From assembly GCA_963778115.1 (NCBI GenBank), contig CAVZSV010000007.1, positions 293,719 through 357,718 of the forward strand: DNA of 64,000 nucleotides. Direction: 5' to 3'. Below are positions 13,001 through 42,535 of the stretch, piece by piece; the stretch's first letter is position 1, and each line of letters starts with the position of its first letter. A program made the translations under genes and the position numbers. The notes below the pieces were generated by a model. That model was not told the DNA's origin. It searched no databases and worked only from the letters and a program-made list of their open reading frames with translations. This stretch comes from an uncultured delta proteobacterium (lineage in GTDB: Bacteria > Bdellovibrionota > FAC87 > UBA2466).

Positions 13001-14934
13001 ATAGTTACACCAGTGCGACTCCCCTGCTTTTCAACTCCAGCCACAATCTTTGTGTCGGTGCCAGCGGATCCAATTTAAATAATTTTAAAGGCAAGATCGA
13101 CGAGGTCGCTGTCTATAATACAGCCCTAAGCTCGACACAAATCTTAAACCATTACAATTTAGGCAGAACCTACTTCACGACCGTCGTAGGCGATTCCCCG
13201 ACCGCTTATTGGCGTCTGGGAGAGACTTCAGGAACGACTCTCGCCGACTCCACCGCCAATGCTTACAACCTCACCATCTCGGGATCGGGCTATACGATGA
13301 ATCAAACCGGCGCTATCTCCGGAGATTCCAATGGAGCGCTCTTGATGACGGGAGCCTCGCAGAACTGTTATACGGGTTCCGCCACATTGCAAGGAACGTT
13401 CAGTGTCGAAGCCTGGGTCTACCCCACTAATGCGACTTCGCTTAACGGAATCGTCGGGAGTCGAGCCAGTGGAGATGAATCTTTCGACATGAAGTATGAT
13501 AGTGGAGTTTTTCACGGCGATATTGGAAACGGGAGTAGTTGGATAACGACAGCGGCGGATACGGCGGCCTCGTACACCACTCTCAATACTTGGTATCACG
13601 TGGTCTATGTAGTGACACCGACGGGGTATACGATCTACGTAAATGGGACCAACGCCGGAAGCAATACCTGGGCGTCGGCAACTCCGATACTCTTTAATAG
13701 CACTCACACTCTGTGCGTAGGAGCTGATTCCGATGCGGCATTTGAGGAGTTAAGCGGAAAGTTAGATGAAGTTGCCATTTACAATTACGCACTGACCTCG
13801 ACTCAAGTCGCCAATCACTACAATACAGGCATCAATTCGTCCGCAGGAGTGACCTCTTGTACTTCGCTCTCCACTCTGGGCAGCGGAGTTTGGAATGCGA
13901 TCGCCGGTATCTTTGATGGAACCAATGCCATCTTGTACGTAAACGGTAGACAGGAATGCACCATGACGGTCTCGGGATCCTTAACGACACCCGCTTCCGA
14001 CGTCATCGCAGGGGCGACTTCAGCCACTTCGAAATACTGGACAGGATCTCTGGCGGAGTTGCAGATCTATGGCGCGACGGGCGCCACTACCGTTGGAACT
14101 GCCGCCAACGTAAATACGAACTTCACTTCCACCGCCGATCTTTTCCGACAAACTCCCGTAGGAGGCATCGTAACTAACGGTTTGGTACTCCATTACGATG
14201 CCGCCAATGCAACACGGGGACTTGCCTTCCCTGGCGACGGTATCAGCCAGACCTCATGGTTTGATCTCTCCTCTTCGATTTTAGATGGAACTTTAAATGC
14301 GTTTACCGGCACGGGAACTTCCGGTTGGACGGGTTCTGGAACTGCCTCTAGCCCCTATGCCCTTACCTTTAACGGATCTTCAAACTACGTGAGCACGGGC
14401 TATACTCAGACTTCAGCGACGGGATATACCATCGAGGTTTGGGTCAATACGACGGACGCGGGAACCGAAAGAACGTTTGTTAACGATCGCGGAAGCGCCG
14501 GATCTGGCAGCAGTTTAACTCTTGGAATCGGGACCACTGGCGGCGGACATGGAGGAGCGGGTTTAGTGGGATGGGAAGTCGACTCTAACTCCCTAGATAT
14601 CGGAGTCTCCTCAACGACTGCCGTAAACGACGGTAAATGGCATCAGGTAGTGGGAACCTGGTCGGCCTCCTCGGGAACTGCCGTAGCGGCAAGTCAGTTC
14701 ACCATTTACATCGACGATGCGGCAGCCGCGACAACCTCGGGCTCTATAGGCTCAGCCACCTCTCCACTTACCGGCCTAGGAGGAACCAGCATTGGATACC
14801 ACTCTCTTTGGGGAACCTATTTGAACGGTGCTATCGCCAAAGTTGCTATCTACAATCGGGCACTCGCCGCTTCCGAGGTGGTACAAAACTGCAAAGCGAT
14901 CGTGGGACGATTTTCGACCGGGGTTTGTCATTAA
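10057..14934 (+). CDS. giant secreted adhesin-like protein (1625 aa) with a Big_2 domain and multiple LamG-like (concanavalin A-like lectin) domains
   Basis: Signal peptide MKRSNNIGKAHFLRALTILAIVFAFRANA. Bacterial Ig-like group 2 signature (...ITPAGNYFGNGSTTQLTVTATYSDSSTQNVTSAVNWSSSN...). At least four LamG_3-type modules end in (K/A)(I/L)DEVA(V/I)YN.ALS..(Q/E)(I/V)..HYN. Two adjacent modules are about 70% identical. Confidence 0.75.
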   Translation: MKRSNNIGKAHFLRALTILAIVFAFRANAEVQTTLNMTVPALVMGTSGTFSSSQASGPVGTNTGTVLHSYAGVENFVQTSGTGRFSTLNGTSVFGVGFDTFQIFQSFVDPDYLTVVNSSTTCPVNSTYDWMMVRMRTPDAPRDRISATDPTLTAGGTFAYTASTSTFTGTNYFNLSGPTLASTNSYGISGYNSTVCTSGKNLAYSTGTSSLDQYLYVYYGATNVSIVTSNGNPEVIIATPQTTLSAGTMTSLANYVFTGLYTYFVNDTSQTRANVYLYPNAAGTTYTIKQETSLTDPTQYTTIGTLTCTSLNSPTTGFCSGTLTLSGVTGTGNAVCLVSPNTTENLLLCSAQYPGYLSDPVTIIGKTVSQGVSQVSLPAAAASVASSGQSTNLTATVQNLSSRYASVIGNPTDPALDLSSPWSNTGAFGGGSGTCGTTLKAYSSCTFPVTYTSTGIGTNTGVLRVAYDNGTGTNPNATANLVGTTGLVSLAITPAGNYFGNGSTTQLTVTATYSDSSTQNVTSAVNWSSSNTSAATISSLGLASWVGLGSSTLTASLASVSTNQTFNVVTPPVLTVVSNQIFPSSYLNQGANFTQDFNNISGGSPGNDTNMTYTCVYDQVVDGSVSPGTACTSLPGTISFGSTTGIFNWTPTAGAWGPYEIKVTGTLDTNVSVSEIFVIDVRPGYVTTNLRGDYEAQFANLTSNWTSASYYWDDLTTNAFNGTSSSTTNATWVGNGSYSSPYALTLNGSADMDFGSSLMASQTKMMFTLWMDPTTSTNTDQVILGSSNDGTGNGFNLRQSKGSAGKVDFSVGLEATYTASVSNLTPVAYYRLDETSGTTLHDSSANGYNLTLAGSGTTLNVAGAINGDTDTAIQYNGSGYACNTTSNSLSGTFTVEAWVNPSATGSTYGIVGSRESSDYSFDMSYISGQFHADIGNGTSWLTQTANTTASTYTTLNAWYHVVYVVTPTGYTVYVDGVNAGSNSYTSATPLLFNSSHNLCVGASGSNLNNFKGKIDEVAVYNTALSSTQILNHYNLGRTYFTTVVGDSPTAYWRLGETSGTTLADSTANAYNLTISGSGYTMNQTGAISGDSNGALLMTGASQNCYTGSATLQGTFSVEAWVYPTNATSLNGIVGSRASGDESFDMKYDSGVFHGDIGNGSSWITTAADTAASYTTLNTWYHVVYVVTPTGYTIYVNGTNAGSNTWASATPILFNSTHTLCVGADSDAAFEELSGKLDEVAIYNYALTSTQVANHYNTGINSSAGVTSCTSLSTLGSGVWNAIAGIFDGTNAILYVNGRQECTMTVSGSLTTPASDVIAGATSATSKYWTGSLAELQIYGATGATTVGTAANVNTNFTSTADLFRQTPVGGIVTNGLVLHYDAANATRGLAFPGDGISQTSWFDLSSSILDGTLNAFTGTGTSGWTGSGTASSPYALTFNGSSNYVSTGYTQTSATGYTIEVWVNTTDAGTERTFVNDRGSAGSGSSLTLGIGTTGGGHGGAGLVGWEVDSNSLDIGVSSTTAVNDGKWHQVVGTWSASSGTAVAASQFTIYIDDAAAATTSGSIGSATSPLTGLGGTSIGYHSLWGTYLNGAIAKVAIYNRALAASEVVQNCKAIVGRFSTGVCH
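12538..13830 (+). repeat. intragenic tandem duplication (2 x ~666 nt; two LamG-like modules) inside the giant gene
   Basis: Residues YYRLDETSGTTLHDSSANGYNLTLAGSG...KIDEVAVYNTALSSTQILNHYNLG are repeated as YWRLGETSGTTLADSTANAYNLTISGSG...KLDEVAIYNYALTSTQVANHYNTG, with a 222-aa period. The antisense ORFs 12712..13044 and 13228..13707 are by-products of this repeat. Confidence 0.8.
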
Positions 14935-19117: not shown

Positions 19118-20191
19118 ATGTCCGATAGTGAAGCCATTGAAGCATTTCTTCCCCAGGACGTCTCCGGTTTGTTAGATCTCATCGATTTGAAATTAGGCGC
19201 AGGAAAGACTGCGGAAGCCGAAAAGGAGCCCAGACACGTCATCGCAGCCCTTTTGAGCACGCATCTTCTGCGCCCCGTCACGGAATTCTTAGATAGGCCC
19301 GCGAAAGGAATTCGTGGGCAGCTGGTCGAAATTGGCTTCATCCTCGGCGGGCCTCGCGAACTTTCCTTAAACAGCACTGAAAAAGAACTCTGCCGGCGCG
19401 GTTCGGAACTGGTCGAGTCAATCCACGCCGGCTCTTTGGTCGTGGATGATATTCAAGACGACAGTCAGGTGCGTCGTGGTTCTCCCGCCCTTCATTTGCA
19501 ACACGGTGTCCCTTTAGCGATCAACGCCGGTAATTGGCTGTATTTCTGGCCGCTCGAGCGGCTCGAGAAGTGGAATCTCCCTCCGGCAGCCGAGTTAAGC
19601 ATTCACCGCGCATGTCACCGCGCCTTGGTGAGAGCTCATTTCGGACAAGCGCTGGATATCGGAACTCCCATCGATCAGATTCCTCAAGATAGGATCTCGC
19701 CGGTCTGTTTGGCTTCCTTAGAGTTAAAAACAGGGGCCCTTATGGGTCTCGCCACCGCGATCGGCTGCCTTTTGCGGGGAGGAGATTCCAAGCGGGTGGA
19801 GATGGTTCACGAGTTCGGTGTCAGATTTGGGGTGGCACTTCAAATGTTTGATGACATCGGAAATCTAAAAGCGACTCGCGAAAACGATCCGAAACAGTAT
19901 GAAGATCTCCGTCTTAAACGACCCTCCTGGATTTGGTCGGTGGCTTCAAAGTACTTGGATGAAGCTGACTTCGCCTCGTTTCGCAAGAGTGTCAACCAGC
20001 TTCCCAATACCACCCCTCTGCATGAGTGGTTGCAATTAAACCCACTACTCACCCAGGCCAGGCTTGAAGCGACTCTTTACCTTGAAGACTGCTTAAGACG
20101 ACTTGAAGAAGGGGTTGAAGAATCGGCTTTCCGCAAGACTCTCTCCACGGTGGAGGAGATCGCAGAGACCCTCACCACATCGTATGGCTGA
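19118..20191 (+). CDS. polyprenyl diphosphate synthase (CrtE/GGPP synthase-like trans-isoprenyl transferase)
   Basis: First Asp-rich motif VVDDIQDDSQVRRG and second motif FDDIGN, with an RBS gaagagaagg upstream. Placement between crtY and crtI/B supports a CrtE role. Confidence 0.65.
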   Translation: MSDSEAIEAFLPQDVSGLLDLIDLKLGAGKTAEAEKEPRHVIAALLSTHLLRPVTEFLDRPAKGIRGQLVEIGFILGGPRELSLNSTEKELCRRGSELVESIHAGSLVVDDIQDDSQVRRGSPALHLQHGVPLAINAGNWLYFWPLERLEKWNLPPAAELSIHRACHRALVRAHFGQALDIGTPIDQIPQDRISPVCLASLELKTGALMGLATAIGCLLRGGDSKRVEMVHEFGVRFGVALQMFDDIGNLKATRENDPKQYEDLRLKRPSWIWSVASKYLDEADFASFRKSVNQLPNTTPLHEWLQLNPLLTQARLEATLYLEDCLRRLEEGVEESAFRKTLSTVEEIAETLTTSYG

Positions 20192-22643
20192 TCCGAAGAA
20201 AAAAATTGCGGTCATCGGAAGTGGGTTTGGCGGATTAGCCACTGCGATTCGCCTTCAGGCGGCTGGCTGCGACGTCACCATTTTTGAAAAAAGAGATCTC
20301 CCCGGAGGACGGGCCTACGTTTACCACGATAGTGGTTTTACTTTTGACGCTGGACCTACCGTCATCACGGCTCCTCACTGTTTGGAAGAGCTTTTCACCG
20401 TTTGCGGCCGCAAAATGGAAGACTACGTGGAGCTTGTCCCCCTTTCGCCTATGTATCGACTCTGCTGGGAAGATGGGGATCGCTTCGATTATAGTCACGA
20501 CCTTAAGACAACCGTCACCCAAATCGAGAAGCGGTCCTTAGAAGATGCCAGAAATTACGAACGCTTTCTCGATTACAGTCGAGAGGTTTTTGAAGCGGGC
20601 TACACCGAACTTGCTAGTGTTCCTTTTCTCAATTGGGGAAGCATGATCCGCGCTTCGCCTGAGCTATTGCGACTGAATGCTTTTCGCTCCGTCTATGGAG
20701 TAGTTTCAAAATATATTAAAGATCCCCATCTCAGGCAGGCCTTTAGTTTTCATTCCCTGCTGGTAGGAGGCAATCCCTATAGTACGTCCGCCATTTACAC
20801 TTTGATCCACTATCTGGAGAAAAAATGGGGAGTCTTTTTCCCCAAGGGGGGAACTCACGCCTTGGTCACAGCCTTGGTTCGTCTCTTTGAGGAGATGGGG
20901 GGACATATCGTTTACGGTGATGGGGTAACCGCCATTCGGACGGACCAAGGAAAAGTGACGGGTGTCGCCACCACGAAAATTGAATTCACTCCCTGTGATG
21001 CCGTAGTCAGCAATGCCGACGTTAATCGAACTTATGTAGATCTTCTTCGCAAAGAGCCCCGTGTCGAAAGAACACGGCGGCGCATCGAGGCAATGAGCTA
21101 TAGTCCGTCACTTTTTGTTATCTATTTTGGAACCAACCAAAAATATCCCGACGTAGCCCATCACAATATTCTCTTTGGAAATCGTTACCGCGAACTTTTG
21201 GCCGATATTTACGATAAGGGCATTCTAGCTGACGATTTTTCGCTTTATCTGCACGCACCGACTCGCACCGATCCGTCACTTGCCCCTGAGGGCTGTGATA
21301 CCTTTTATGCGCTTTCTCCCGTCCCTCATTTGGAAAAATCGACGACCGATTGGAATACCGAGGGGCCAAGGTACGCCGATCGTATTTTGGATTACTTAGA
21401 AAAGCATTACTTGCCCGATCTGAAGAGCCACATCGTCACGCGAAGAATCTTTAGCCCTTTGGATTTCAAAAATGAACTCAACGCTTATGCCGGCTCTGCT
21501 TTTTCACTGGAACCTTTACTTACTCAAAGCGCTTATTTCCGCGCGCACAATCGAGATTCAGCAATTCGCGGGCTCTATTTGGTAGGTGCCGGTACCCATC
21601 CCGGAGCTGGAATTCCCGGAGTCGTAAATTCAGCCAAAGCTACCTCAGGGCTCGTATTAGAGGATTTACTTCCCAAGCCGGCGATCGTTCGTCACAGTCC
21701 CGCGGCGAGTCTTGAAGAAAAAAGAGCCCTCGAAAAATGCCGCGAGATGATTCGAGTGGGCTCTAAGAGTTTCTCATTCGCTTCCAGACTTTTCAGCCGC
21801 CCCATTCGAGATGCCGCCTGCTTTCTTTATGGCTGGTGCCGGTACTGTGATGACCAGATCGATCTTATCGAGGACTCCCAAACTCAGCAGGAGAGGCTCT
21901 CCGAGTTGGTCGCCTCCACAAGAGTGGCGTTTGAAGAAGAAAGCGCTCCGCTGCCCGAAGTGTTCGTAGCGTTGCGCTACATCGCTCGCCAGTACGAGAT
22001 TCCCGCCTTTTATGCGACGGAGCTATTGGAAGGATTAAGAATGGATCTCCGTCGGACTCAATACCGTACGTTGGATGAATTGACTCTCTACGGGTACCGG
22101 GTCGCCGGAACCGTAGGTCTTATGATGTCTCACGTCATGGGAGTTACCGACGAGCGGGCCTTAAAGCATGCCGCTGACTTGGGGATAGCCATGCAGCTGA
22201 GTAACATTGCCCGAGATGTTGTGGAAGATTTCCAAATGGGGCGCGTTTATCTCCCCCTGGAGTGGTTGGAGAAAGCTAGAGTGCCCGCATTTGAATTGGC
22301 GGAAATCAAGTATCGCGATGGCTTGGCACGTGTCGTAGCGCAACTTTTAGATAGCGCCGACGGCTACTACCGGTCGGGAAATCGGGGACTGAGGTATCTT
22401 CCTTTGAGAAGCGCACTCGCCGTCGCCATGGCAAGTTCGGTCTATGCCAAAATCGGACACTTGGTTCGCAAGAAAGGACCCAGGGCCTGGGACCGACGGA
22501 CCTACGTTCCCCTCTGGAGAAAATGTTTTTCGCTGGTTCGCGGAGTTTTCTTGGTGGCCTTGACACTTCCCTATCGATTGGAGCAACGTCGTAAACCTAT
22601 TCCATTACTCCGGCTGTGTCGACATACTCCAGGAGAATTTTGA
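20184..22643 (+). CDS. crtIB: phytoene desaturase CrtI fused in a single ORF to phytoene synthase CrtB
   Basis: The N-terminal ~500 aa are collinear with CrtI (KKIAVIGSGFGGLATAIRLQAAG ... GAGTHPGAGIPGVVNSAKATSGLVLEDL). A 15-20 aa linker follows, then CrtB (VGSKSFSFASRLF, YGWCRYCDDQID, AGTVGLMM, ARDVVED). The ATG at 20184 overlaps the crtE stop (ATGGCTGA). Confidence 0.85.
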   Translation: MADPKKKIAVIGSGFGGLATAIRLQAAGCDVTIFEKRDLPGGRAYVYHDSGFTFDAGPTVITAPHCLEELFTVCGRKMEDYVELVPLSPMYRLCWEDGDRFDYSHDLKTTVTQIEKRSLEDARNYERFLDYSREVFEAGYTELASVPFLNWGSMIRASPELLRLNAFRSVYGVVSKYIKDPHLRQAFSFHSLLVGGNPYSTSAIYTLIHYLEKKWGVFFPKGGTHALVTALVRLFEEMGGHIVYGDGVTAIRTDQGKVTGVATTKIEFTPCDAVVSNADVNRTYVDLLRKEPRVERTRRRIEAMSYSPSLFVIYFGTNQKYPDVAHHNILFGNRYRELLADIYDKGILADDFSLYLHAPTRTDPSLAPEGCDTFYALSPVPHLEKSTTDWNTEGPRYADRILDYLEKHYLPDLKSHIVTRRIFSPLDFKNELNAYAGSAFSLEPLLTQSAYFRAHNRDSAIRGLYLVGAGTHPGAGIPGVVNSAKATSGLVLEDLLPKPAIVRHSPAASLEEKRALEKCREMIRVGSKSFSFASRLFSRPIRDAACFLYGWCRYCDDQIDLIEDSQTQQERLSELVASTRVAFEEESAPLPEVFVALRYIARQYEIPAFYATELLEGLRMDLRRTQYRTLDELTLYGYRVAGTVGLMMSHVMGVTDERALKHAADLGIAMQLSNIARDVVEDFQMGRVYLPLEWLEKARVPAFELAEIKYRDGLARVVAQLLDSADGYYRSGNRGLRYLPLRSALAVAMASSVYAKIGHLVRKKGPRAWDRRTYVPLWRKCFSLVRGVFLVALTLPYRLEQRRKPIPLLRLCRHTPGEF

Positions 22644-32809: not shown

Positions 32810-33871
32810 TTGCCCCCCTCTTTTAGACTATTGCTCTCACCCTCCCAAAGAGGTTTAATTACCCCCATGAGTGTCCATACCCCCCGACTTTGTATCGATG
32901 GCCGAGCGGCCGCGGAATATCCCTCTAACGCTCTTATCGCCCAGGAGTTAATCGACCAATTGGTCGCGGCCGGCGGTGAGGGGGAATCAATCTCAAGCGA
33001 ATGGATCGATAAACAGCGTACGGTATTACTCTCTCACCCGGGACAGATCTTTTCGGGACAATTACGGCGATTTGATACTAAGCGCCGCATTGGAAAATCA
33101 CCACTATATTGGTTTTGGGAAAAACAATTCGTTAAGAAGGCTAATATCAGCGTTTTCCATCGCTTTCGTCCGGCCGATCGTTTGGGCCCTGGCCACGATC
33201 TTCCGATGTTAACCACGGTCCTTCCCGGGAAAACGGCATTGCGATCGCGCCCCGGAAAGAGCCTTAAACAACGCTTTGTCGTCCCTTCGGAAAAGGATTT
33301 TCGCCTTTTGGAGAAGCGATTTGGAGTGCCTAAGGACCGAATCTACATCGCGACTCCGACGGTACGGCGCTATGTCCATTTTTCGGACCTCTCTTCGGAG
33401 AGTCCGCGAGCCTCTTTGCTTTTCTTAGTGGGCAATCGAGGGGAAAAAACCGATTATAAGAAGATTGTGTCTGTCATCTCAGCTCGGTTTCCCACACTAC
33501 GACAAAGAGTGATTTCCCTTTCGCAGCGCCGGGCTTTTACTCCCCTCAAGTGGATGGAAATACTATCCCAGACTAGATACTGCTTTTATCTGACGGATAG
33601 GGCCTTCGATTGGCCAACGCTCGCGCTGGAAGCTTTTTACTGGAATATTCCCTGTGTGTACTTAGAATCGCATGACGCTTTATCGGAAATGATTTCTATT
33701 TCGTCACTCGAACTCTCTCGCTTCTTAGTCAATCAACCGGACGCCGCTCAACTTACTATCGCCTGCCATTCCGCGCGCCAGCAATTGGAAAATCGAGGAG
33801 CCTTCGATCCCTTGGGGCTCGCCAAACAATTCAATAAGTTTTACCAGAATTTAAAAGAAGCGAATGCTTAG
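32810..33871 (+). CDS. putative GT4-like glycosyltransferase (divergent)
   Basis: N-terminal RLCIDGRAAAEYPS resembles the GT4 R.xIDaR...tGigRY start, and the C-terminal LALEAFYWNIPCV resembles the E-x7-E region. Low confidence. Confidence 0.35.
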   Translation: MPPSFRLLLSPSQRGLITPMSVHTPRLCIDGRAAAEYPSNALIAQELIDQLVAAGGEGESISSEWIDKQRTVLLSHPGQIFSGQLRRFDTKRRIGKSPLYWFWEKQFVKKANISVFHRFRPADRLGPGHDLPMLTTVLPGKTALRSRPGKSLKQRFVVPSEKDFRLLEKRFGVPKDRIYIATPTVRRYVHFSDLSSESPRASLLFLVGNRGEKTDYKKIVSVISARFPTLRQRVISLSQRRAFTPLKWMEILSQTRYCFYLTDRAFDWPTLALEAFYWNIPCVYLESHDALSEMISISSLELSRFLVNQPDAAQLTIACHSARQQLENRGAFDPLGLAKQFNKFYQNLKEANA

Positions 33872-33890: not shown

Positions 33891-35552
33891 CTATGACGTC
33901 CAGCAGACGCGACGAGCATTAGAGCCCGTGCCAAAGATACGCGAGGACCAGCCGGGCTGGTCGCATTGCTTGGTGTAGATGGAAGCCCCTTCGAATAGAT
34001 AGAACCGAGGAGAAAGACCCTCGATTCTTTGTGCGATCACTTCAGCATTGGTGATATTGCCCCCAGGAGCGTAGGGAGTTTCTAGAGGTGCTAAGCGATA
34101 CCATGGCATTCTAGTGAACATGTAGGCATCTTCGCCAAAAAGATCAGGACAATGGAGGAGTCGATCTAGCCCGGGAGTATATTGAGGTACTACCACTGCA
34201 TCCTTTAACGTGCATTGCGAATTTATGAAGGATACCGCTTCGAATAAGGGACGCCTGTCGGGATGGGTTAAAACTCCGCTTAAAGCGGGAAACCCGTACT
34301 CGTTAAAATGAAACTTCGCCAATTGCCCCCATCCCACGACATAGGGTAAGTACGCCCAAACCGCGATCGCGACTAAAAAGGCCCGAGCCCCCCACGATTT
34401 CATTCGCTCTGTGTGGTGAAGTACCGTCGGCCAGACGACTAAGAAAATGGCAACCGCCGTTAACGAGAAGAAATACTGCCCCCTAGCCCACATTGCGGGC
34501 TCTTTAAAAGGATCGTTAAACCCGTAATGAAGTAGATCCAAAGCACCCGCAAGACCAATGATCGTACAGATGGCCGCCGCTCTCATATTTTTTCGAGAAG
34601 GCAAAAGATAGGCGGCGGTAAAGACAAATGTCGGCCAGACAAAGTAATGAAGATAAAATACCGCAGTCTCAAGAACCGCCCGAAGCTGCTTAAAGAGTTG
34701 CATCCCCACGTCGGCTGATGCCGAACTTAGCGTTAAGTGAGGGACCAGATAGTGCAGATTCGGATAACTTTTCGATTCCAGTACCGCCCAAGGCCTAGGA
34801 AGAAAAGCATTCATCAGACCTCGTCCAAATATCAGATAAAACACTCCTAGCGTCGCCAGTGTCGTTAACATGAGGACTACCCAGCCGCGAATTCTCGTGA
34901 GAGTAAACGAGTTCGCAAGCATGAGACAGCTCCACGCCCCAAACACGCCGTATCCCATCAGCACAGGCCTTGTAAAAAGACAAAGTGCAGCCCCCGCATA
35001 CGACCACAGTAAGGCTCCCCCGTCTTTATCCTCTATAAACTTAAGATAGTAATACGCACAGATCACAGCCCCCAAGGTGGCCAAGATGTGATTGTTCGAA
35101 TAGCCGGGATACCCCGTACAGCCGGATGCAAGAAGAACCCCTACTAAACAAGAGCGGTAGGTAACAAAATATCTAGCAAACAGTAACGCTAGAAAACACG
35201 CTACCGCACTCCAGAAAGCCAAAGTGACTAATCTAACGGTAATGAGTTTTGCCGGAAATACTTTTAGTGCCGCCCCGTAGACGATCGGTGCGACAGGGCC
35301 ATACAGCCATACAAAATCCCGATAAGCGTACTGTCCTTGTGAGGCTTTGGTGTAATGATCGAAATCCCGAAGTTCCTCGGGATTGTTCGCGGTGAAGATC
35401 ATCGGAAATTTGAGCACGAAAAAGAGTGCCGCAGCAAGACAGACTAGCCGGGTCCGATCGAGCGTGGGCGTCGGGACTACCGCTACTTCGGACGGTTTAA
35501 CATTATGGATTAGGCGTAATTTCAAGGAAGTTCCGACCACTTTCGCAAGCAA
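33891..35552 (-). CDS. GT-C-like polytopic membrane glycosyltransferase candidate with C-terminal periplasmic domain
   Basis: About 12 TM helices over 400 aa, then a roughly 150-aa soluble Cys-containing tail. Operonic with the GT2 fusion and the epimerase. Confidence 0.45.
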   Translation of the reverse strand: MLAKVVGTSLKLRLIHNVKPSEVAVVPTPTLDRTRLVCLAAALFFVLKFPMIFTANNPEELRDFDHYTKASQGQYAYRDFVWLYGPVAPIVYGAALKVFPAKLITVRLVTLAFWSAVACFLALLFARYFVTYRSCLVGVLLASGCTGYPGYSNNHILATLGAVICAYYYLKFIEDKDGGALLWSYAGAALCLFTRPVLMGYGVFGAWSCLMLANSFTLTRIRGWVVLMLTTLATLGVFYLIFGRGLMNAFLPRPWAVLESKSYPNLHYLVPHLTLSSASADVGMQLFKQLRAVLETAVFYLHYFVWPTFVFTAAYLLPSRKNMRAAAICTIIGLAGALDLLHYGFNDPFKEPAMWARGQYFFSLTAVAIFLVVWPTVLHHTERMKSWGARAFLVAIAVWAYLPYVVGWGQLAKFHFNEYGFPALSGVLTHPDRRPLFEAVSFINSQCTLKDAVVVPQYTPGLDRLLHCPDLFGEDAYMFTRMPWYRLAPLETPYAPGGNITNAEVIAQRIEGLSPRFYLFEGASIYTKQCDQPGWSSRIFGTGSNARRVCWTS

Positions 35553-37036
35553 AGCTTAAGAAAGGAGATTCCAGAGCTAAAAGCCTTCATCTTGGACTCT
35601 CCGGCGACACGACTCTTGTAATGCACGGGAATCTCCACACACTTTAACTTTCGACGGGCGGCGTGAAAGATGAGATCAAAGTCTCCCCAAGCTGAGTCTT
35701 CCAATTCAAAATCAGCGAAGTCAATTTTACGCATGGCCTTCGTGCCACAAAGGGTGTCCGAGCATTCCGAACCTACAATCACCTCGACGAGTTTGGAGAA
35801 CAGAATGTTTCCGAAATAGTTTGCAAGCCTCATGGCTTCGCGCTCCATCGGATAAAGAAAACGGGTGCCCGAGGCAAAATCGGCGGTCTTGGATTCCAAA
35901 GCTTCGAAAAAGTCGGTCAACTCCTCCGGAGGTACAGTCATGTCGGCATCCAAAATCATAACCACATCACCCTTGGCCGCGCGCAAGCCTTTCAAAACCG
36001 CATTCCCTTTTCCCTGATTCTTCGCGTACGTAATCAAGGTCAGATTGGGAAACGTTGGGGTTAGGTTGCGGACGATCTCTTCGGTTTTGTCCTTCGAGCC
36101 GTCATTCACGACTAAAATTTCGGTAAAGCTCCCCATGTGGGGGACTCGATTGATGCATTCGGTGATATTACCCTCTTCGTTATAGCAGGGGATGATGACC
36201 GAGCAGCTCGAGCGGTTCGTTTTCTTCAGTTCCGCTGGCTTTGCCGTTACGTACTGAATAAAACAAAGGGAATTAAAACCGGGTAAACGCGAGAGAAACT
36301 GATTGCACAGCCAGGAGAAAAGGGGGATGCGCTTGGGGACCAATACCCGTCGGCATTTATCCATCACCTTAAAGCTTTTAATCTCCAGTGCCGTTCCCAA
36401 AATCCGGCTACCCACCAAATTGCGCTTGTGGTCTGGAATTCGGATCTTTAGTCGGGAAGCGAATTTCACCAAGGGATGCCAAAGTGGATTTAACATCGAG
36501 AGGATAACTCTAGAATCTTCATGGACAAACTTGCTTACCGAGTCTACCAGGGCCAACACGTCGTCACTATGATCAACGACATTTAACAAAATCACGTAAT
36601 CGAATTTTTCCGTAGTCTTATATTCTTCAGGAAGCGCACAGTGATAGCGGACGTTTGGGTTTTGGCAATTGGCACGTGCCAAGCGAACCGCTTCTTCGCT
36701 GACGTCAAGACCTACCCCGTATGAAGGTCGGAGAGCTTCCAGTATTTCAGAGGTTAAGCACCCAATGAGCAGAACTTTTTTATTTTCGGGAACGACTTGG
36801 CTCAAAAATTTGATCGTGTGTTCGCGATAAGCCGCCATCTTGCGTTTCCAACGGCTAGAGCGAACTACATTCTCGAAGTACCGCACCACGGTCGGCGAAA
36901 GTGTGGCTCGATCTAACTTAACTGGTACGGGCGGCGCCCAGTCGCTAAGTGCGGCATCAAGCGTTGTTTGAAAATCAGGCTGCTTTTCTTGTCTGGCTGG
37001 CTGTAGCATTCTCCACCATCTCCTTGAGAATGGCAT
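35522..37036 (-). CDS. bifunctional class I SAM methyltransferase / GT2 polyprenyl-phosphate glycosyltransferase (DPM1/ArnC/GtrB-like) fusion
   Basis: N-terminal KKVLLIGCLTSEILEAL...GVGLDVSEEAV (Rossmann MT). C-terminal SVIIPCYNEEGNI...VVNDGSKD...ILDADMTVPPEE (GT2 DxD and DAD..P motifs). Confidence 0.75.
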   Translation of the reverse strand: MPFSRRWWRMLQPARQEKQPDFQTTLDAALSDWAPPVPVKLDRATLSPTVVRYFENVVRSSRWKRKMAAYREHTIKFLSQVVPENKKVLLIGCLTSEILEALRPSYGVGLDVSEEAVRLARANCQNPNVRYHCALPEEYKTTEKFDYVILLNVVDHSDDVLALVDSVSKFVHEDSRVILSMLNPLWHPLVKFASRLKIRIPDHKRNLVGSRILGTALEIKSFKVMDKCRRVLVPKRIPLFSWLCNQFLSRLPGFNSLCFIQYVTAKPAELKKTNRSSCSVIIPCYNEEGNITECINRVPHMGSFTEILVVNDGSKDKTEEIVRNLTPTFPNLTLITYAKNQGKGNAVLKGLRAAKGDVVMILDADMTVPPEELTDFFEALESKTADFASGTRFLYPMEREAMRLANYFGNILFSKLVEVIVGSECSDTLCGTKAMRKIDFADFELEDSAWGDFDLIFHAARRKLKCVEIPVHYKSRVAGESKMKAFSSGISFLKLCLRKWSELP

Positions 37037-38036
37037 CCAGGCTCATCTTGAGCCTGAAAGCGGGATAATGAGTTTTAAATTTAGTAAGGTCGGAGTAATA
37101 GCAGATATGATCGCCTTTTCTGGCCGTGGGATCGTATTGAGTCTCCAAGGAGAATCCAAAATCATTTCTTAATTTGTCGATAATCTCGATGACGGAAGCG
37201 CTATTTCCATACGCTCCACCGAGGTTATAAACCTCTCCGCAACGGGGATTTTTTCTGAATAGTTCCAGCGCTTGAATCACGTCCGACGAGTGAATTTGGT
37301 CCCGGACCTGTTTTCCTTGGTAGCCAAAAATCGTGTAAGGCAGATTATGAACGGCGCAGTGGACGATATACGATAAAAACCCGTGGAGTTCGACCCCAGC
37401 GTGGCGGCTTCCTGTCAAACATCCGCCTCGGAAGGCTCCAGTATTGATTTGAAAATAGCGTCCGTACTCTTGGCAGAGAATATCGCCGGAAAGCTTGGAA
37501 GCGCCAAACAAAGAGTGAAGACACTGGTCTACCGAAAGGTCTTCGGCGATCCCTTTCTTAAAAAGAGAGCCCGTATATTCAAATCTTTTTTCCTGTTCCT
37601 CCATCGGCAAGTGATTGGGAGCGTCTCCGTAAACTTTGTTGGTACTCATCAAGACGAAAACGCCGGTCGGCGTGTGGCGACGAAATGCCTCTAAGAGATT
37701 CAAAGTCCCCATGGCATTGACTTCAAAATCGGTGAAAGGTTCTCGTGCCGCCCAATCATGAGAGGGTTGTGCCGCCGTATGAACTACGAAGTCTGGTTTG
37801 AAGTCGGCAAAACATTTATCAATGGCCAGGCGATCGCGAATGTCGATAGCCACGTGCCGGTAATTCTTGAAATGCGATTGAAGATCCCGCTTCACTCCCG
37901 AGGTATCTCCCTTCGCGCCGAAGAAATATTGCCGCAAATTATTGTCGATGCCGGTCACTTCATGCCCTTCGCTGGCGTAGTGAATAACGGCTTCCGACCC
38001 AATGAGACCGCAACTTCCTGTTACGAGTATTTTCAT
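36975..38036 (-). CDS. NAD-dependent sugar epimerase, CDP-paratose/tyvelose 2-epimerase-like
   Basis: MKILVTGSCGLIGSE Rossmann motif, AAQPSHDWAAREPFTDFEVNAMGTLNLLEA, and a YG..K catalytic dyad region. Confidence 0.75.
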   Translation of the reverse strand: MKILVTGSCGLIGSEAVIHYASEGHEVTGIDNNLRQYFFGAKGDTSGVKRDLQSHFKNYRHVAIDIRDRLAIDKCFADFKPDFVVHTAAQPSHDWAAREPFTDFEVNAMGTLNLLEAFRRHTPTGVFVLMSTNKVYGDAPNHLPMEEQEKRFEYTGSLFKKGIAEDLSVDQCLHSLFGASKLSGDILCQEYGRYFQINTGAFRGGCLTGSRHAGVELHGFLSYIVHCAVHNLPYTIFGYQGKQVRDQIHSSDVIQALELFRKNPRCGEVYNLGGAYGNSASVIEIIDKLRNDFGFSLETQYDPTARKGDHICYYSDLTKFKTHYPAFRLKMSLDAILKEMVENATASQTRKAA

Positions 38037-38219: not shown

Positions 38220-39875
38220 CTAGAATCCAGAGTGGCCCTGCGCGTTAATCGCATCAGGAACCGAAGCTGTTCCCCGAGCGGCGTGAGCGACTAAATTATT
38301 GTCATCCGCTATCATGCCCCGGATATTGGCGGCGGTATTGGATCTCGTGGAGGCGGTATTATTCACTACGTTTGCCGTCGAATTATTCACGCGGGCGTTC
38401 GTGGCCGAGTTATTGATCAGGGCTCCATTTCCATTGCGAGAATTTCTGGCCGGCTGACGAGCCGACATCGCATAGGGATTGCCCGCTAGCCCCTGAATCA
38501 GTTGCTGTGCCGCTCCTCCATGTGAAATCATAAGCCCACTCATCATTCGACCGGCCATCATCACCGAGAAATCGAATCTTCTTACCTGGAGCGCTAATAG
38601 TGCCGCCCCTTGCATATAGGAGATAGCCGTCTTCATCGCCTCATTTCTCATATCCATGTAGAATTTTCGGCGTTTGAGCTGGAGGTCTTTGGAAAACAGA
38701 GAATATTCTTCGCTCGATTTCATGACCTGGCGATTGGTCTCTTGCATTTGTTGATCGCGATTCGTGAATAGTGCTGCCAATGAGTTACTCATTTTGGCAA
38801 AAGCGGCCATCGCGCCATCGTAAACCTGAGTATTGCTATTAATCTTGGCCATCGTCGTCGAAGCATTAGCATTCGTATGAGCGATCGAGGTGGCCGCCCC
38901 CGCTTGCGCCGCAGTAGCCCCCACCATTCCCAACGCTCCGGTCGCGATCGCTGCCGCTCCAAAGGCCTGAAAAATTGCCGCCGATCCACCACCGCCTCCA
39001 CCTCCTCCAGCGCCACCCCCGCCTCCGCCACCGCCACCGTTAGGGTTCACGGGATTGCCGTCGCGGTCCATAAGTCCCTGCTCTTGAGCAGCTCTAAGAG
39101 CCGCTTGCGTCGGGGTAAATCCTTGTCCAATCAAATCCTGCTGCCGTTTCAACGTATTTTCGGCGATCTTGGTGGCATCTGCTTTTGTGAGAAACCCCCT
39201 GTTGATCGCATCCAAGAGGTTTTGTCTTAGATCGACTCCTAAGACACTTCCGATGCCGTTATTGGTTAATCCTAAACCGGCCAGAGGATCACCGGCTTGA
39301 GATTGATCTGCGATGGCTCCGCCGGTAATGGCATCGATAGCAAGCTGTTGCTGAGCGGTTAGCGCCAATGCCGAGGGGACACTCACCGCCTTCCACAAAG
39401 CTACTAGCGGAAGGGGCGACCAATAACTGGCGCGAACGTGGGCCGAATATTTCTTGGCGTCAATCTGACTGGTACTGGCTCCAGTCACTCCCCCTGCGGG
39501 AAACGAGGCGGGAGCGCGACGAGTAGCCCCCTTTGTCATCATCGCCGACGGTCGAGAAATCGGTTTCGAAGGCAACGGAGAAAACCAGACTTCGCGGTGC
39601 TTTACATCTTCGCGACGATCATTCTCCTCGGGGCCGAAGCCATGAATTCGTTCGGGCATAAGTCCTCCGGACGATATCTGGCGATCGTTGCTTTGCAAAA
39701 GTTCATTCGTCTTAGACCACGTTTCGTGAATCCACTGACGAAACCCTCCGCAGCACGAGACTCTGTTTCGAGGCGAGCTCGGAATAAGAAGCGCAAGCAG
39801 CAGACCTAGCACGGATAGCGCTACTAATTTTTGAGTTCTAGAAAACATCTTCCCCCTTAAGAACGCCCAGTGCAC
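38220..39875 (-). CDS. secreted Gly-run / Ala-rich helix / coiled-coil protein B (paralog of 40133..42535)
   Basis: Signal peptide; G19 run followed by an Ala-rich hydrophobic helix, a TNANAS motif and a Q-rich helical region; Asn-rich tail ending ...LVAHAARGTASVPDAINAQGHSGF. Confidence 0.55.
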   Translation of the reverse strand: MHWAFLRGKMFSRTQKLVALSVLGLLLALLIPSSPRNRVSCCGGFRQWIHETWSKTNELLQSNDRQISSGGLMPERIHGFGPEENDRREDVKHREVWFSPLPSKPISRPSAMMTKGATRRAPASFPAGGVTGASTSQIDAKKYSAHVRASYWSPLPLVALWKAVSVPSALALTAQQQLAIDAITGGAIADQSQAGDPLAGLGLTNNGIGSVLGVDLRQNLLDAINRGFLTKADATKIAENTLKRQQDLIGQGFTPTQAALRAAQEQGLMDRDGNPVNPNGGGGGGGGGAGGGGGGGGSAAIFQAFGAAAIATGALGMVGATAAQAGAATSIAHTNANASTTMAKINSNTQVYDGAMAAFAKMSNSLAALFTNRDQQMQETNRQVMKSSEEYSLFSKDLQLKRRKFYMDMRNEAMKTAISYMQGAALLALQVRRFDFSVMMAGRMMSGLMISHGGAAQQLIQGLAGNPYAMSARQPARNSRNGNGALINNSATNARVNNSTANVVNNTASTRSNTAANIRGMIADDNNLVAHAARGTASVPDAINAQGHSGF

Positions 39876-40055
39876 ACGGATGGATACGACGTATAAAAGT
39901 CGAACACCCCTTTAGCTTTGGAGGTCCCCCTATTCCAGTTAGAGTTGCATATTCTTTGCCAAATTCAGTAATCACTCTCCTCACAAGCAGATAAAAAAGA
40001 GGGGAGGACTCTCATGAGCCGGCACCACAGTAGGGGAGGACCCACGATAGTCAGA

Positions 40056-40089
40056 CAAAAAAGAGGGGAGGACTCTCATGAGCCCTCCC
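40056..40089 (-). terminator. rho-independent terminator for gene 40133..42535 (GGGGAGG-12 nt loop-CCTCCCC + T6), with a degenerate upstream duplicate at 39992..40019
   Basis: Minus-strand reading: ggggagg gctcatgagagt cctcccc tctttttt. The 28-nt string aaaaaagaggggaggactctcatgagcc occurs twice, 64 nt apart. Confidence 0.65.
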
Positions 40090-40132
40090 CAGGACGACTG
40101 TGGTCTTTCTAGACCATCCCCCGATTAAGCTT

Positions 40133-42535
40133 TTAAAATCCTGATGAACCTTGAAGTGGCGTATGCGGTAAGCCACTGTGACCTAGCTCCGGCATCGCCG
40201 TCATCGACGGCGGATTATAAGCTTTTGAAGCAACCGCCATTGAGGCCGTTGCTCGCGCTCCAGGCGAGTGCGCCACTAAATCTTGGTTCGAAGTACCAAC
40301 CGCGCCCGGTTGAAAATACGAAGTGGCTGCGATCGCCGGATTTGTCATCGATTGAGGAGCCGTCTTTTGTAAGAGCTGTCCCAAATCGCTTGTTGTCTGC
40401 GCTACAAATTTATTTTGCGACGTCGAACCCGAAGCTTTATTGGTGCTGATAACACCGCGCAAAGCAGCACTCATCGCAGGTGCATTCTTAGTTAATTTCA
40501 ATTGGTGCGCTCCTACCGCCATGGCACTTCCCGTTGCAGGAACTAAAATTCTCTTTCCCGTCTTAGGATCGATAGTCCACTGAAGGGGGCTTCCATCGGA
40601 AGCCGTGGTATTGCCGACACTCGCCAAAAGTGCATCAGACGCGGAACCAGAATTTTGTCCCGCCGTCATCCCTCGCGCAGCCCCCCCTAAACCCGTAAAT
40701 CCTGAGCCGCCACCGTTGGAGGCCATCTGAGTTGCAGCACCTAGACCTGAACCTCGAGTGCTCGTAAGTCCGTTAGCAGCATTTCCAAATCCGCCACCAC
40801 CAGCTCCGCCAAATCCGCCGGCTTGTCCGCCGCCGCCAAATCCCCCGCCCTGCCCTCCACCGAAACCTCCGCCTGCACCCGCTTGAGCGCTATTTCCAAA
40901 AGCTCCCGCACGACCGGGCATATTGTTTGCCACCGTTAACCCTTGACCGGTCGCTGAATTAAAAACGTTGCTGGGCATCGGATTGCCGGGTCCGCCGCCT
41001 TGATTGAGGGCCGCTGCTTCAGAGAGCCTCTCTTGCCGATTGGCCAGAGCTATGGTCTCGTCAGCTTGTGATTTGGCGATATCCAATTTCTGTTTGTCTA
41101 AATTTTCCTGATAAGTGAGTCGTTGCTCTTCAAAGTTATTCGCATCCGTTCGCGCTTTATCCAACTCTTGCAATTGAATGTTCAAGCGATCTGTCGTCGA
41201 TTGCTGATTCTGTGCCGAAATCTGTTGGGCGATCTGAGCCTGTTGCGAAGCGATGGCGGCTTGCTGACCGGCAAGCTGCTGTGAAGTCTGAGCACTAATC
41301 TGAGTCATTTGAATCTGGGCATTCGCATTCGTCTGGGCGATTTGCTTGTCAGCATTAGCTTGAATCGCTGCTGCCGCCACGGGTGCCGCCGCCGCAATGA
41401 TCATTGCAAACCCCATCAGGAACGCAGCCGCTTCTCCGCCGCCCTCCCCGCCTCCGCCCTCTGCATGGGCGGAGGTCGTGGAGAGAACCCCCGATAATTT
41501 GAGAAAAGCTATGTTAGACCAATACTGAGGTTTGATATTCGATTGGTACTGAGACGGATTCTGCTGAGGAGCCAAGGGGCGATCCTCACTGCTAAGCGCT
41601 CTTTTAGAAACTTGCTTGCCCGTCTTCTTATCGAAAAAGGTTTGATCTAAAGCAGACGCAGGCTCACGCGCTGGAGCCAATGACGATTCCACTGCCGCCA
41701 GATCACTATTGGCTGACTGCCAAAACCCACCGGCTTTAGGCGCAGAAGAGGAAGCGTTAACCGAACTCCCTACTACGGCGCCATCTGCACCGGCCGCAGT
41801 TTGAGAAGATATGGCGGACGTCCCCCCTACGGTTGAAATACTCGCCGAACCCGTCACATCGGAAGCGGAAGGATCTTGCAAGTTCGCTGCTTTAGCAGCT
41901 CCGTCATCAAAAACTAGTTTGTCTGACTTTACGGGGCCGTTTGAAGAGGAACTTTGGCCCAGTGAATCGTCGCCCAGACTCGCTAACTCTTTATTCAAAG
42001 GATCTTGTCCTTTGGATTGAGAATCATCAAAGACCAATCGATCAGAACCCCCACCACCGCCAGCTCCGGCTTTCGCCATTACCGAAGCGGGAATTCCCGT
42101 TCCTAACTTCGGAATGTAGCGCTTATCAGGATGGGCCAAAAACTTTTTGTAGTTATCGGCAGCGTTTACATTGATGAAGCCTCCCAGCATCTTCTGGACC
42201 ATGGGAAGATCGGAATTACCAAACTTGTTGCTCTTAAACTCGCCGGCAAGGCCACGAATAGCGCCGGGTAGCATGCCCATCGCATGACGAACATTTTGCT
42301 GGCGCCATGCATCCATCGGATTCTCAGCGGCAGACGTCATCGCTTGGTTGATCTGCATTATGGTGGCTACTAGATATACAAAACTTGCATTGTTGGCGAA
42401 ATCGGATTGGGAGTGCTGAGCAAAGGCGGAAGGCCCTAGGATTAAATTCCAGGAGAGAATCAGCGCAAGCCAAAACGAAGACCGTTTCGATCTTCGAAGA
42501 GAGGCGAAGAGCAGTATGTGCTTTCTCTGATGCAT
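40133..42535 (-). CDS. secreted Gly-run / Ala-rich helix / coiled-coil protein A (800 aa), paralog of 38220..39875
   Basis: Signal peptide. GGGGEGGGEAAAFLMGFAMIIAAAAPVAAAAIQ followed by TNANAQ and a Q/A heptad coiled coil. Then a GGFGG-type Gly-rich block and a C-terminal domain ending ...LVAHSPGARATAS...ELGHSGLPHTPLQGSSGF. Confidence 0.55.
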   Translation of the reverse strand: MHQRKHILLFASLRRSKRSSFWLALILSWNLILGPSAFAQHSQSDFANNASFVYLVATIMQINQAMTSAAENPMDAWRQQNVRHAMGMLPGAIRGLAGEFKSNKFGNSDLPMVQKMLGGFINVNAADNYKKFLAHPDKRYIPKLGTGIPASVMAKAGAGGGGGSDRLVFDDSQSKGQDPLNKELASLGDDSLGQSSSSNGPVKSDKLVFDDGAAKAANLQDPSASDVTGSASISTVGGTSAISSQTAAGADGAVVGSSVNASSSAPKAGGFWQSANSDLAAVESSLAPAREPASALDQTFFDKKTGKQVSKRALSSEDRPLAPQQNPSQYQSNIKPQYWSNIAFLKLSGVLSTTSAHAEGGGGEGGGEAAAFLMGFAMIIAAAAPVAAAAIQANADKQIAQTNANAQIQMTQISAQTSQQLAGQQAAIASQQAQIAQQISAQNQQSTTDRLNIQLQELDKARTDANNFEEQRLTYQENLDKQKLDIAKSQADETIALANRQERLSEAAALNQGGGPGNPMPSNVFNSATGQGLTVANNMPGRAGAFGNSAQAGAGGGFGGGQGGGFGGGGQAGGFGGAGGGGFGNAANGLTSTRGSGLGAATQMASNGGGSGFTGLGGAARGMTAGQNSGSASDALLASVGNTTASDGSPLQWTIDPKTGKRILVPATGSAMAVGAHQLKLTKNAPAMSAALRGVISTNKASGSTSQNKFVAQTTSDLGQLLQKTAPQSMTNPAIAATSYFQPGAVGTSNQDLVAHSPGARATASMAVASKAYNPPSMTAMPELGHSGLPHTPLQGSSGF

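Follow-up and report, generated by a model that had tools for sequence, protein, structure and literature searches.

Are two neighbouring genes of an uncultured bacterium, both biased towards glycine, alanine and glutamine, alike in composition only, or do they represent one protein family, and what might such a family build? This question is raised by genes A and B in a 64,000-nucleotide (nt) stretch of DNA from an uncultured delta proteobacterium of the Bdellovibrionota (assembly GCA_963778115.1, contig CAVZSV010000007.1, positions 293,719 to 357,718; hereafter the window, whose numbering is used for all coordinates unless another locus is named). Both were verified as minus-strand neighbours, open reading frame (ORF) A at 40133-42535 (800 amino acids, aa) and ORF B at 38220-39875 (551 aa). 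A first-pass annotation had listed these ORFs with their Gly runs, Ala-rich helices, TNANA motifs, GGFGG repeats and shared tails, and each of these elements is found in the sequence. Judged by their sequences, A and B belong to a previously undescribed family, seen so far in Bdellovibrionota-type genomes only, and of a general kind that is familiar, namely membrane-anchored coiled-coil envelope proteins. We hold the statements on architecture, taken jointly (a real family, the anatomy of its module, signal-peptide homology and gene pairing), with high confidence. Our reading of the whole, that paired paralogs form an exported, membrane-tipped periplasmic rod, is put forward more tentatively. 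Research on Bdellovibrio-like bacteria treats them as predators of other bacteria and as possible "living antibiotics", and much of their envelope proteome is unannotated. Within this proteome we delimit a family that has sharp bounds, comprises about 200 sequence clusters and is restricted to the lineage.

A direct BLASTP comparison of A with B gave a match (E = 0.005 over 47 aa) too faint for a decision on paralogy, and we therefore used profile and shuffle tests. A hidden Markov model (HMM) of A-type cores, built without B, its ortholog P0018 and the B-like hybrids P0014 and P0015, matched B residues 288-435 co-linearly over HMM positions 11-155 (E = 5.4e-9, 32.4 bits) and scored 71 bits against P0018 (E = 6.8e-21). 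The maxima in 400 local shuffles each, carried out inside 7- or 20-residue windows with the Gly run and hydrophobic stretch kept in place, were 21.8 bits for B and 25.4 bits for P0018; a deeper profile reached the B core with E = 1.1e-30. Since the profile scores exceed the local-shuffle maxima, the likeness of A and B is positional rather than compositional, and their paralogy, as first proposed, holds over about 145 residues. It could still be argued that there is no real family and that a Gly run, an Ala stretch and a Q/A coil converged as low-complexity composition, an argument that can cite the poor BLASTP match and the compositional bias of the regions involved. Against it stand the co-linear match above all shuffles, a near-gapless alignment of 67-157 sequences in which individual columns are conserved, a sharp E-value boundary among 1.84e9 proteins, and conserved synteny and pairing; among orthologs, too, conservation is positional. 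The shuffle controls together with the exhaustive search refute this convergence argument, to which we give practically no credence.

That exhaustive HMM search, run on 1.84 billion 50%-identity cluster representatives, yielded 197 members at E<=1e-3 and 170 at E<=1e-10, nearly all of them end-to-end profile matches, and none of the 197 is annotated. It was the informative search; in the word-indexed database, the core alignment retrieved one protein because low-complexity words dominated. The same word-indexed database held 16 relatives of A and two of B, none annotated and none with a Pfam domain. All taxon labels that we obtained read Bdellovibrionota, Pseudobdellovibrionaceae, Bdellovibrionales or "Deltaproteobacteria bacterium", for metagenome-assembled genomes (MAGs). 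We classed 157 sequences into 88 short forms (250-450 aa, with the core beginning at about residue 25-50), 64 long forms that carry the N-domain of A, and five long forms without it, B among them. Scans of A, B, short paralogs and 67 cores against Pfam, NCBIfam and PHROG gave no recurring family, only isolated singletons at chance level; profile searches of the PDB, run with the N-domain and with the core, brought up nothing beyond coiled-coil matches that lack significance (Tup1, protein H, liprin), and a literature search found no description of such proteins. The earlier statement that no known family matches is thereby extended to the N-domain, the core and the short relatives. Two divergent metagenomic members, P0092 and P0155, begin with an '...LE(D/G)R...SA(S/T)' motif instead of a classical signal peptide, and their helices are much less hydrophobic, with Glu or polar residues. 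This motif is typical of secreted proteins of Planctomycetota, and the family may accordingly reach beyond the Bdellovibrionota.

What, then, is conserved? The cores of all classes align as a near-gapless block of 145 columns with a constant order of parts: a flexible acidic or Gly-rich leader, a hydrophobic helix of ~22 residues that is rich in Ala and Gly and has a central Pro, and a helix of ~120 residues. In A (minus strand, like all features of A and B below), the leader is the acidic Gly run EGGGGEGGGE (residues 359-368, 41432-41461; GGGGEGGGE at 360-368). It is followed by the Ala/Gly-rich hydrophobic helix with its central Pro at residues 369-391 (41363-41431), delimited by its hydrophobicity (Kyte-Doolittle 2.23), its summed apparent free energy of membrane insertion (dGapp, 0.8) and column conservation; the sequence here reads AAAFLMGFAMIIAAAAPVAAAAI and then IAQTNANAQ. 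The Q/A-rich rod (IQANADKQIAQTNANAQ...), predicted to be a single helix from AlphaFold2, periodicity and the alignment, continues the hydrophobic helix at residues 392-512 (41000-41362). The core module of B, placed by the HMM and the shuffles, spans residues 280-442 (38550-39038), with a Gly run of 17 Gly and one Ala at 280-297, the hydrophobic helix at 298-328 and the rod at 329-442; here the Gly run leads into SAAIFQAFGAAAIATGALGMVGATAAQAGAA and then IAHTNANAS. Conservation within the module is highest in the hydrophobic helix: in the numbering of the 157-residue core, Leu15, Gly17, Ala19, Ala24 and Pro27 are each conserved in at least 80% of sequences. Its Gly/Ala stripe is heptad-spaced, and this stripe of small residues runs in phase into the polar helix (Ala31, Ala35, Ala42).

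AlphaFold2, run on a single chain with a 67-sequence alignment, predicts one continuous helix of 144 residues (core residues 11-154). Its predicted local distance difference test (pLDDT) values are 92-98 between core residues 40 and 150; they fall to about 50 in the Gly run and the hydrophobic segment, with values below 50 in the acidic Gly run at A residues 359-368. The predicted rod is about 18-20 nm long, of which the polar part accounts for ~18 nm; 18% of its residues are Ala and 15% Gln, and it lacks both Pro and Cys. Rods of neighbouring module genes are identical in length. The first-pass annotation had described a Q/A-rich heptad coiled coil; the Q/A-rich helix stands, and the heptad gives way to a hendecad-like pattern, with a hydrophobicity periodicity of ~3.65-3.7 residues (3-4-4 spacing) and no enrichment of the canonical 3.5. 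A long, isolated helix of the kind modelled here implies that the rod is an oligomeric coiled coil.

Is there any precedent for such a rod? By analogy of design, not as a matter of family membership, the closest parallel is the DNA pilot protein H of phiX174 (Microviridae; PDB 4JPP/4JPN). Like the module as predicted, H has one very long helix (~120-140 residues) that mixes hendecads with heptads and is rich in Gln, Asn and Arg, and it also has an N-terminal membrane helix of the GxxxG type. Residues 151-271 of H form a decameric tube of 170 Å, built of hendecads and heptads and lined with amide and guanidinium groups (PMC7354561), so that H at 170 Å (PMC7354561) and the module at ~18-20 nm are both of about the length needed to cross the envelope of a Gram-negative cell. 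The A/B family differs from H in being encoded by chromosomal, cellular genes, in its Sec signal peptides, its paralog pairs and its long, basic, disordered tails, and in the N-domain of the long forms.

This parallel suggests a membrane-penetrating tube or pore, in which helices of equal length would form an alpha-helical barrel like the H-tube, with the hydrophobic helices, unmasked by cleavage at an A-x-A↓E site (arrow, cleavage), as its membrane-inserted end; its role would be that of a trans-envelope conduit or of a device for breaching the membrane of another cell, such as prey. The resemblance of the single ~140-residue helix to H residues 151-271 in periodicity and composition speaks for a tube, as do the conservation of the hydrophobic helix, whose heptad-spaced Gly/Ala stripe and central Pro recall oligomerising membrane-active helices, and the fact that the family was seen only in a lineage known for predatory bacteria. 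Moreover, 4jpn (protein H) is one of only five PDB sequences returned by the profile. However, that match is not significant (E = 0.37) and has low posterior support; the Microvir_H family (PF04687) matched neither A nor B and was touched by one of 67 members (E = 0.0014). A phage origin found no backing either, as there was no PHROG match and no tblastn match in 50,697 phage records, and the genomic context is chromosomal (UvrB, RecJ, PriA, HU). The organisms are uncultured and their predation is assumed, and one genome scan, which used N-domain patterns only, did not recover the family from cultured predators. Taken together, we regard a tube as improbable. If it did exist, it might serve in making contact with other cells or in breaching them; it would be a cellular version of the phiX174 H-tube and would give Bdellovibrio-like bacteria a new conduit or membrane-breaching device.

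How the module may reach the envelope can be read from the short forms. These begin with a classical Sec signal peptide that ends in A-x-A↓E or a close variant, and the hydrophobic helix follows 0-25 residues later, after a spacer that is acidic or Gly-rich and often contains CxxC. In the long forms the aligned position is internal: it reads KPxYW....L......AHA↓E and is preceded by a Lys-rich stretch, the counterpart of an n-region. A carries this segment directly before its Gly run, as KPQYW...AHA↓E at residues 335-358 (KPQYWSNIAFLKLSGVLSTTSAHA; 41462-41533). It aligns with the signal peptide of the short paralogs together with their cleavage site, to which it is homologous, and is a candidate processing site. 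Because of this internal homology, A, a long form (40133-42535), resembles an N-terminal signal peptide, an N-domain and a linker of ~185 residues fused to a whole pre-protein. The strict pattern A.A[ED] survives in 35 of 63 long forms; among the genuine signal peptides of short forms the figure is 23 of 53. Such retention suggests that the candidate site is still used. The counterpart in B, recognised by BLASTP and in orthologs, lies at residues 151-171 (YWSPLPLVALWKAVSVPSALA; 39363-39425) and reads YWSPLP...SALA, with AHAE kept in one B-like ortholog. The shared core of A and B is hence retained from the first description and refined to a fixed-length module of 145 aa that also occurs in short, stand-alone pre-proteins. 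A further peculiarity of the leader is a CxxC (or Cx4-5C) in the Gly run before the helix of P0005, P0007, P0009, P0022, P0024, P0044, P0100 and others; the hybrids P0014 and P0015 carry a six-Cys insert there, and A and B have no Cys in this region (41432-41461 in A).

Upstream of these internal segments, A has a Sec-type signal peptide of its own at residues 1-39 (42419-42535); its n-region is basic, its h-region is FWLALILSWNLILGP and its cleavage site AFA↓Q. The peptide reads FWLALILSWNLILGPSAFA↓Q, peaks at a Kyte-Doolittle value of 1.58 and aligns with the N-termini of orthologs. The conserved N-domain follows at residues 55-149 (42089-42373; AAENPMDxWRRQNVR...YKKFL..PD..LIPK) and is predicted to fold as an up-down bundle of five helices; periplasmic four-helix-bundle sensor domains (4HB_MCP/NIT-like) were considered as possible relatives of it. 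Residues 150-334 (41534-42088) form a disordered linker, acidic and Lys-rich by composition, in which the alignment marks two VFDD motifs and one (S/R)DLAxxE. B (38220-39875) is a divergent paralog without the N-domain, probably of 542 aa starting at Met10 (39848). Its N-terminal hydrophobic segment, residues 17-35 (LVALSVLGLLLALLIPSSP; 39771-39827; Kyte-Doolittle 2.15), is supported by orthologs, and no A-x-A site was found after it, so that the segment may be a signal peptide or an uncleaved signal anchor. The proposal that each protein has its own signal peptide therefore applies to A as stated and to B with this qualification. The public gene models start A (P0001) at Met60 (741 aa) and B (P0017) at residue 22 (530 aa), too far in, and have therefore lost the export signals of both proteins. 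The N-termini of orthologs suggest Met1 for A and Met10 (39848) for B as the true starts, which corrects these models.

An export or cleavage signal placed shortly before a hydrophobic helix is also known from two other groups of proteins. Class I viral fusion proteins (HIV gp41, paramyxovirus F1, influenza HA2) resemble the long forms in their linear arrangement of a precursor with a basic stretch, a cleavage site (putative in our case) and, at the N-terminus that cleavage would create, a Gly/Ala-rich hydrophobic peptide leading directly into a long helical repeat. Unlike them, the family has no second helical repeat and no C-terminal membrane anchor: there is no hydrophobic peak in A after residues 373-391, and later windows of B are marginal (Kyte-Doolittle ~1.0). 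The trimer-of-hairpins mechanism of fusion is therefore unavailable; moreover, the short forms use an ordinary signal peptide, and no homology to class I fusion proteins was detected. The procoat of M13, the major coat protein of an inovirus, likewise combines a cleavable Sec-type signal peptide ending in A-x-A with an acidic mature N-terminus (AE...) and a hydrophobic helix soon after. Mature procoat, however, measures ~50 residues and its C-terminal flank is basic, whereas the flank in the family is uncharged or acidic (-0.33) and is followed by a 120-residue rod and a long tail, with no phage context. Of the defining features of procoat-like type-I insertion, a signal peptide, a short acidic loop and a hydrophobic span are present and the basic cytoplasmic flank is absent, which speaks against membership.

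A second constant feature is that module genes come in groups. At 18 of 19 evaluable loci (the exception being L019), module genes stand side by side on one strand, in twos or threes, and the position of the locus is conserved in at least 17 MAGs. The conserved order comprises sugar transferases, HU, a divergent PuuD-like membrane protein, a short paralog, a long paralog, a 353-aa protein, a metallo-beta-lactamase (MBL)-fold hydrolase and UvrB. The partner of the long form is, in most genomes, the short upstream paralog; pairing of A with B is specific to one sub-clade and recurs, in the order A then B, at L022-L025. The sub-clade of the window has no short upstream paralog, and no degraded remnant of one was detectable upstream of A. 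Together with the export signal before a conserved helix, the invariant rod length and the internal signal-peptide site of the long forms, this near-constant pairing amounts to an unusual and constrained design. Recombination seems to have been at work at some loci. L003 and L004 (9791-15541 of those loci) hold three tandem module genes. One is a long hybrid whose core is B-like; the other two are short forms with near-identical rods, which indicates recent duplication or gene conversion within the locus. Near the family locus in L017 (11518-13890, minus strand), a 791-aa anti-sigma-like protein with a transmembrane (TM) span and a vWA domain carries a copied rod fragment (NSQRIELAKKQADDNLKLA...QIQMTNITTETSKFIS) just after its membrane span, which points to the paralogs having recombined with an envelope protein that is not related to them.

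From these elements we propose the following course of events. The proteins would be exported through Sec, and cleavage at A-x-A↓E would expose the hydrophobic helix at or near the new N-terminus, which in A would call for an internal processing step. Neighbouring paralogs (A and B here, short and long forms elsewhere) would assemble in register as a hetero-oligomeric rod, as argued from their equal rod length and gene adjacency. The clustered hydrophobic tips of the rod would be buried in an envelope membrane, and the rod would stand in the periplasm as a strut of fixed length, while the basic tails and the N-domain of the long forms would bind other envelope components. In the sub-clade that pairs A with B, the Ser/Thr-rich tails may additionally be glycosylated by an adjacent polyprenyl-phosphate-sugar cassette (described below). 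The location of both proteins in the envelope, already assumed in the first-pass annotation, is likely, given export signals in both and, within the family, paired Cys or CxxC upstream of the helix.

On which side of the membrane would the rod lie? Our proposal of a periplasmic rod competes here with the idea that A and B are type-I bitopic proteins of the inner membrane. The hydrophobic helix would then be a stop-transfer span (N-out, C-in), and the ~18-nm rod and the basic tail would form a hetero-oligomeric stalk in the cytoplasm; the periplasmic part would comprise the Gly leader, plus N-domain and linker in the long forms, and would be coupled to the cytoplasmic coiled coil in a receptor- or scaffold-like manner. 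By classical criteria the helix could indeed cross a membrane: the family median of its Kyte-Doolittle value is 2.06 (2.23 in A, at a summed dGapp of 0.8), and the summed dGapp is <1.5 in 41% of helices. The Sec translocon would be expected to retain at least the more hydrophobic helices as stop-transfer anchors, which would leave rod and tail in the cytoplasm. An acidic N-flank (net -1.5) next to a neutral, less negative C-flank fits an N-out/C-in span, the helix predicted by AlphaFold2 passes straight into the rod as it does in bitopic proteins, and the strongly basic tails (median +10) are also compatible with the cytoplasm. The other half of the evidence favours export of the rod. A Sec signal peptide directly precedes the helix in the short forms (88 of 157), and if the rod stayed inside, this cleavable peptide would be spent on exporting 0-25 residues, that is, almost nothing. 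No Lys/Arg cluster follows the helix (net charge of the C-flank -0.33 over 15 residues). The summed dGapp exceeds 3 in one third of helices, which would therefore be poor stop-transfer segments, and the helices of P0092 and P0155 contain Glu or polar residues behind a different N-terminal signal. Tails have either no Cys or exactly two, next to the CxxC or paired Cys of the leader; the rod fragment in L017 was copied into the predicted extracytoplasmic part of the TM/vWA protein; and B is linked to a cassette expected to act on the periplasmic face. The charge of the flanks, the parity of Cys numbers and hydrophobicity thus give mixed signals on the topology. We regard the bitopic arrangement as less probable than the exported rod but as a serious rival to it, and as clearly more probable than a tube.

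Beyond topology, other points weigh against a periplasmic rod. The genes conserved around the locus have housekeeping roles and offer no hint of function, and the sugar cassette could equally be an Arn-like system for the modification of lipid A or lipopolysaccharide (LPS) that is unrelated to B.

If the periplasmic rod is nonetheless the right picture, it would compare with envelope struts and tethers such as Braun's lipoprotein Lpp and domain II of TolA. All are coiled-coil rods of set length, either exported or held in a membrane, whose two ends serve for anchoring and for binding, and the strict conservation of rod length fits such a role as a spacer. In contrast to Lpp, the family has neither a lipobox Cys nor a lipid anchor (mature N-termini start with E, D, G or A), nor a conserved C-terminal Lys (C-termini vary among F, R, D, E, H, Q, P and others), and its rod is about twice as long. 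The span of TolA is uncleaved, N-terminal and encoded in a tol-pal operon, whereas the helix of the family follows a cleaved signal peptide and its gene neighbours are unrelated. Pfam and NCBIfam scans detected no sequence similarity of A or B to Lpp or TolA. We rejected membership among Lpp-type tethers for want of the lipobox Cys and the C-terminal Lys. The lineage in question is not known to have Lpp, and periplasmic struts of this family would represent a peptide-anchored analogue of Lpp-type spacers.

Three further candidates were considered and set aside. Subunit b of the F-type ATP synthase has an N-terminal membrane helix followed by a nearly straight, Ala-rich helix of hendecad type (~150 residues), in this respect like the module. 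Unlike subunit b, the family has a signal peptide and a long tail. The candidate was rejected on an hhalign probability of 0.3%, the absence of a Pfam ATP-synt_B match and a location outside an atp operon, as the surrounding genes instead encode a PuuD-like membrane protein, HU, sugar transferases and an epimerase. A phage tape-measure protein (TMP_2) was matched by one short paralog at E = 0.0092, far below the cut-off, and was dismissed in view of this and of the lack of PHROG matches. Type IV pilins, Flp pilins and type IV secretion system (T4SS) pilins do not agree with Sec-type A-x-A leaders, mature lengths of 230-800 aa and the absence of a Glu5 pattern.

The far end of the rod carries the tails. 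These are 100-290 residues long, consist to ~50% of Gly, Ala, Ser and Thr, are basic (median net charge +10) and have a composition of the disordered type. Cys is absent from the tails of 117 members and occurs exactly twice in those of four; the rods of all 121 have none. Short motifs recur in the fixed order RG-phi, SDLxxF, YNAP and GH(S/T)G. RG[VIMLF] was observed 70 times against 12.9±3.7 expected from shuffled tails, and SD[LIMV]xx[FYLW] occurs in 48 of 118 tails, where 1.5 were expected, at ~57 residues from the C-terminus; YN[AP]P is present in many long forms. The tail of A (residues 513-800, 40136-40999), disordered and rich in Gly, Ser, Ala and Thr, contains the GGFGG repeats (~553-583), RG-phi (594, 621, 693), SDLGQL (716), LVAHS (752-756), YNPP (773) and GHSG (785), and ends in F. 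That of B (residues 443-551, 38223-38549), likewise disordered and rich in Asn, Ser and Thr, contains RGM (519), LVAHA (527-531), RGT (534) and GHSGF (547-551). The suggestion of a shared GHSG.F ending has proved right in its first part. A small-His-small motif lies within the last 25 residues of 28 out of 41 members, compared with 3.2 expected, and since this and the other tail motifs are enriched over shuffles, the GHSG motif is real and family-wide. The terminal Phe, in contrast, is not conserved and is restricted to A, B and close relatives. The idea that the shared ending is a sorting signal gained no support from the analyses.

Between A and B lies an intrinsic terminator of A (40055-40090, minus strand), with an 11-bp stem that includes 8 G-C pairs, a 4-nt loop and a T-run; the separate signals expected from the initial assumption of a strong terminator and separate transcription are thus present. 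The same gap contains a 40-nt direct repeat (39988-40027 and 40052-40091), whose two copies are spaced 64 nt apart and share 90% identity. The 3' arm and T-run of the A terminator make up one copy, and the other repeats arm and T-run without a matching 5' arm, which points to a partial duplication of the terminator.

Directly downstream of B, three genes on the same minus strand (33891-38036) form the sugar cassette. They encode a NAD-dependent epimerase/dehydratase (36975-38036), a methyltransferase fused to a GT2 domain resembling polyprenyl-phosphate-sugar synthases (35522-37036), and a polytopic membrane protein of 553 aa with at least six hydrophobic peaks (33891-35552). The best NCBIfam matches of the methyltransferase-GT2 protein, all below their cut-offs, are polyprenyl-phosphate-sugar synthases (AglJ, dolichyl-phosphate hexose transferase and ArnC-type). 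No Pfam, NCBIfam or PDB sequence match was found for the membrane protein, which could be an unclassified glycosyltransferase resembling the GT-C type. The order of B, epimerase, methyltransferase-GT2 and membrane protein is kept in GCA_038325205.1, where B is 43% and the membrane protein 68% identical, and from this conserved order we infer a functional link of B to the cassette. The methyltransferase-GT2 fusion is in itself unusual. As listed, its ORF shares 62 nt with the end of the epimerase ORF, and its true start is for this reason probably further downstream.

Some other genes of the window deserve mention. The 353-aa protein at 32810-33871 (plus strand), a conserved syntenic neighbour that is convergent with the long paralog in nine loci, has no Pfam or NCBIfam family, and the product of 2156-3700 (plus strand) has no Pfam family. 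The product of 10057-14934 (plus strand) has 1625 aa and four Laminin_G_3 (concanavalin-like lectin) domains and is probably a large adhesin-like protein, either secreted or at the cell surface. Finally, the 846-aa ORF at 20103-22643 (plus strand) joins two domains in one protein, one like flavin amine-oxidase/phytoene-desaturase and the other a squalene/phytoene synthase.

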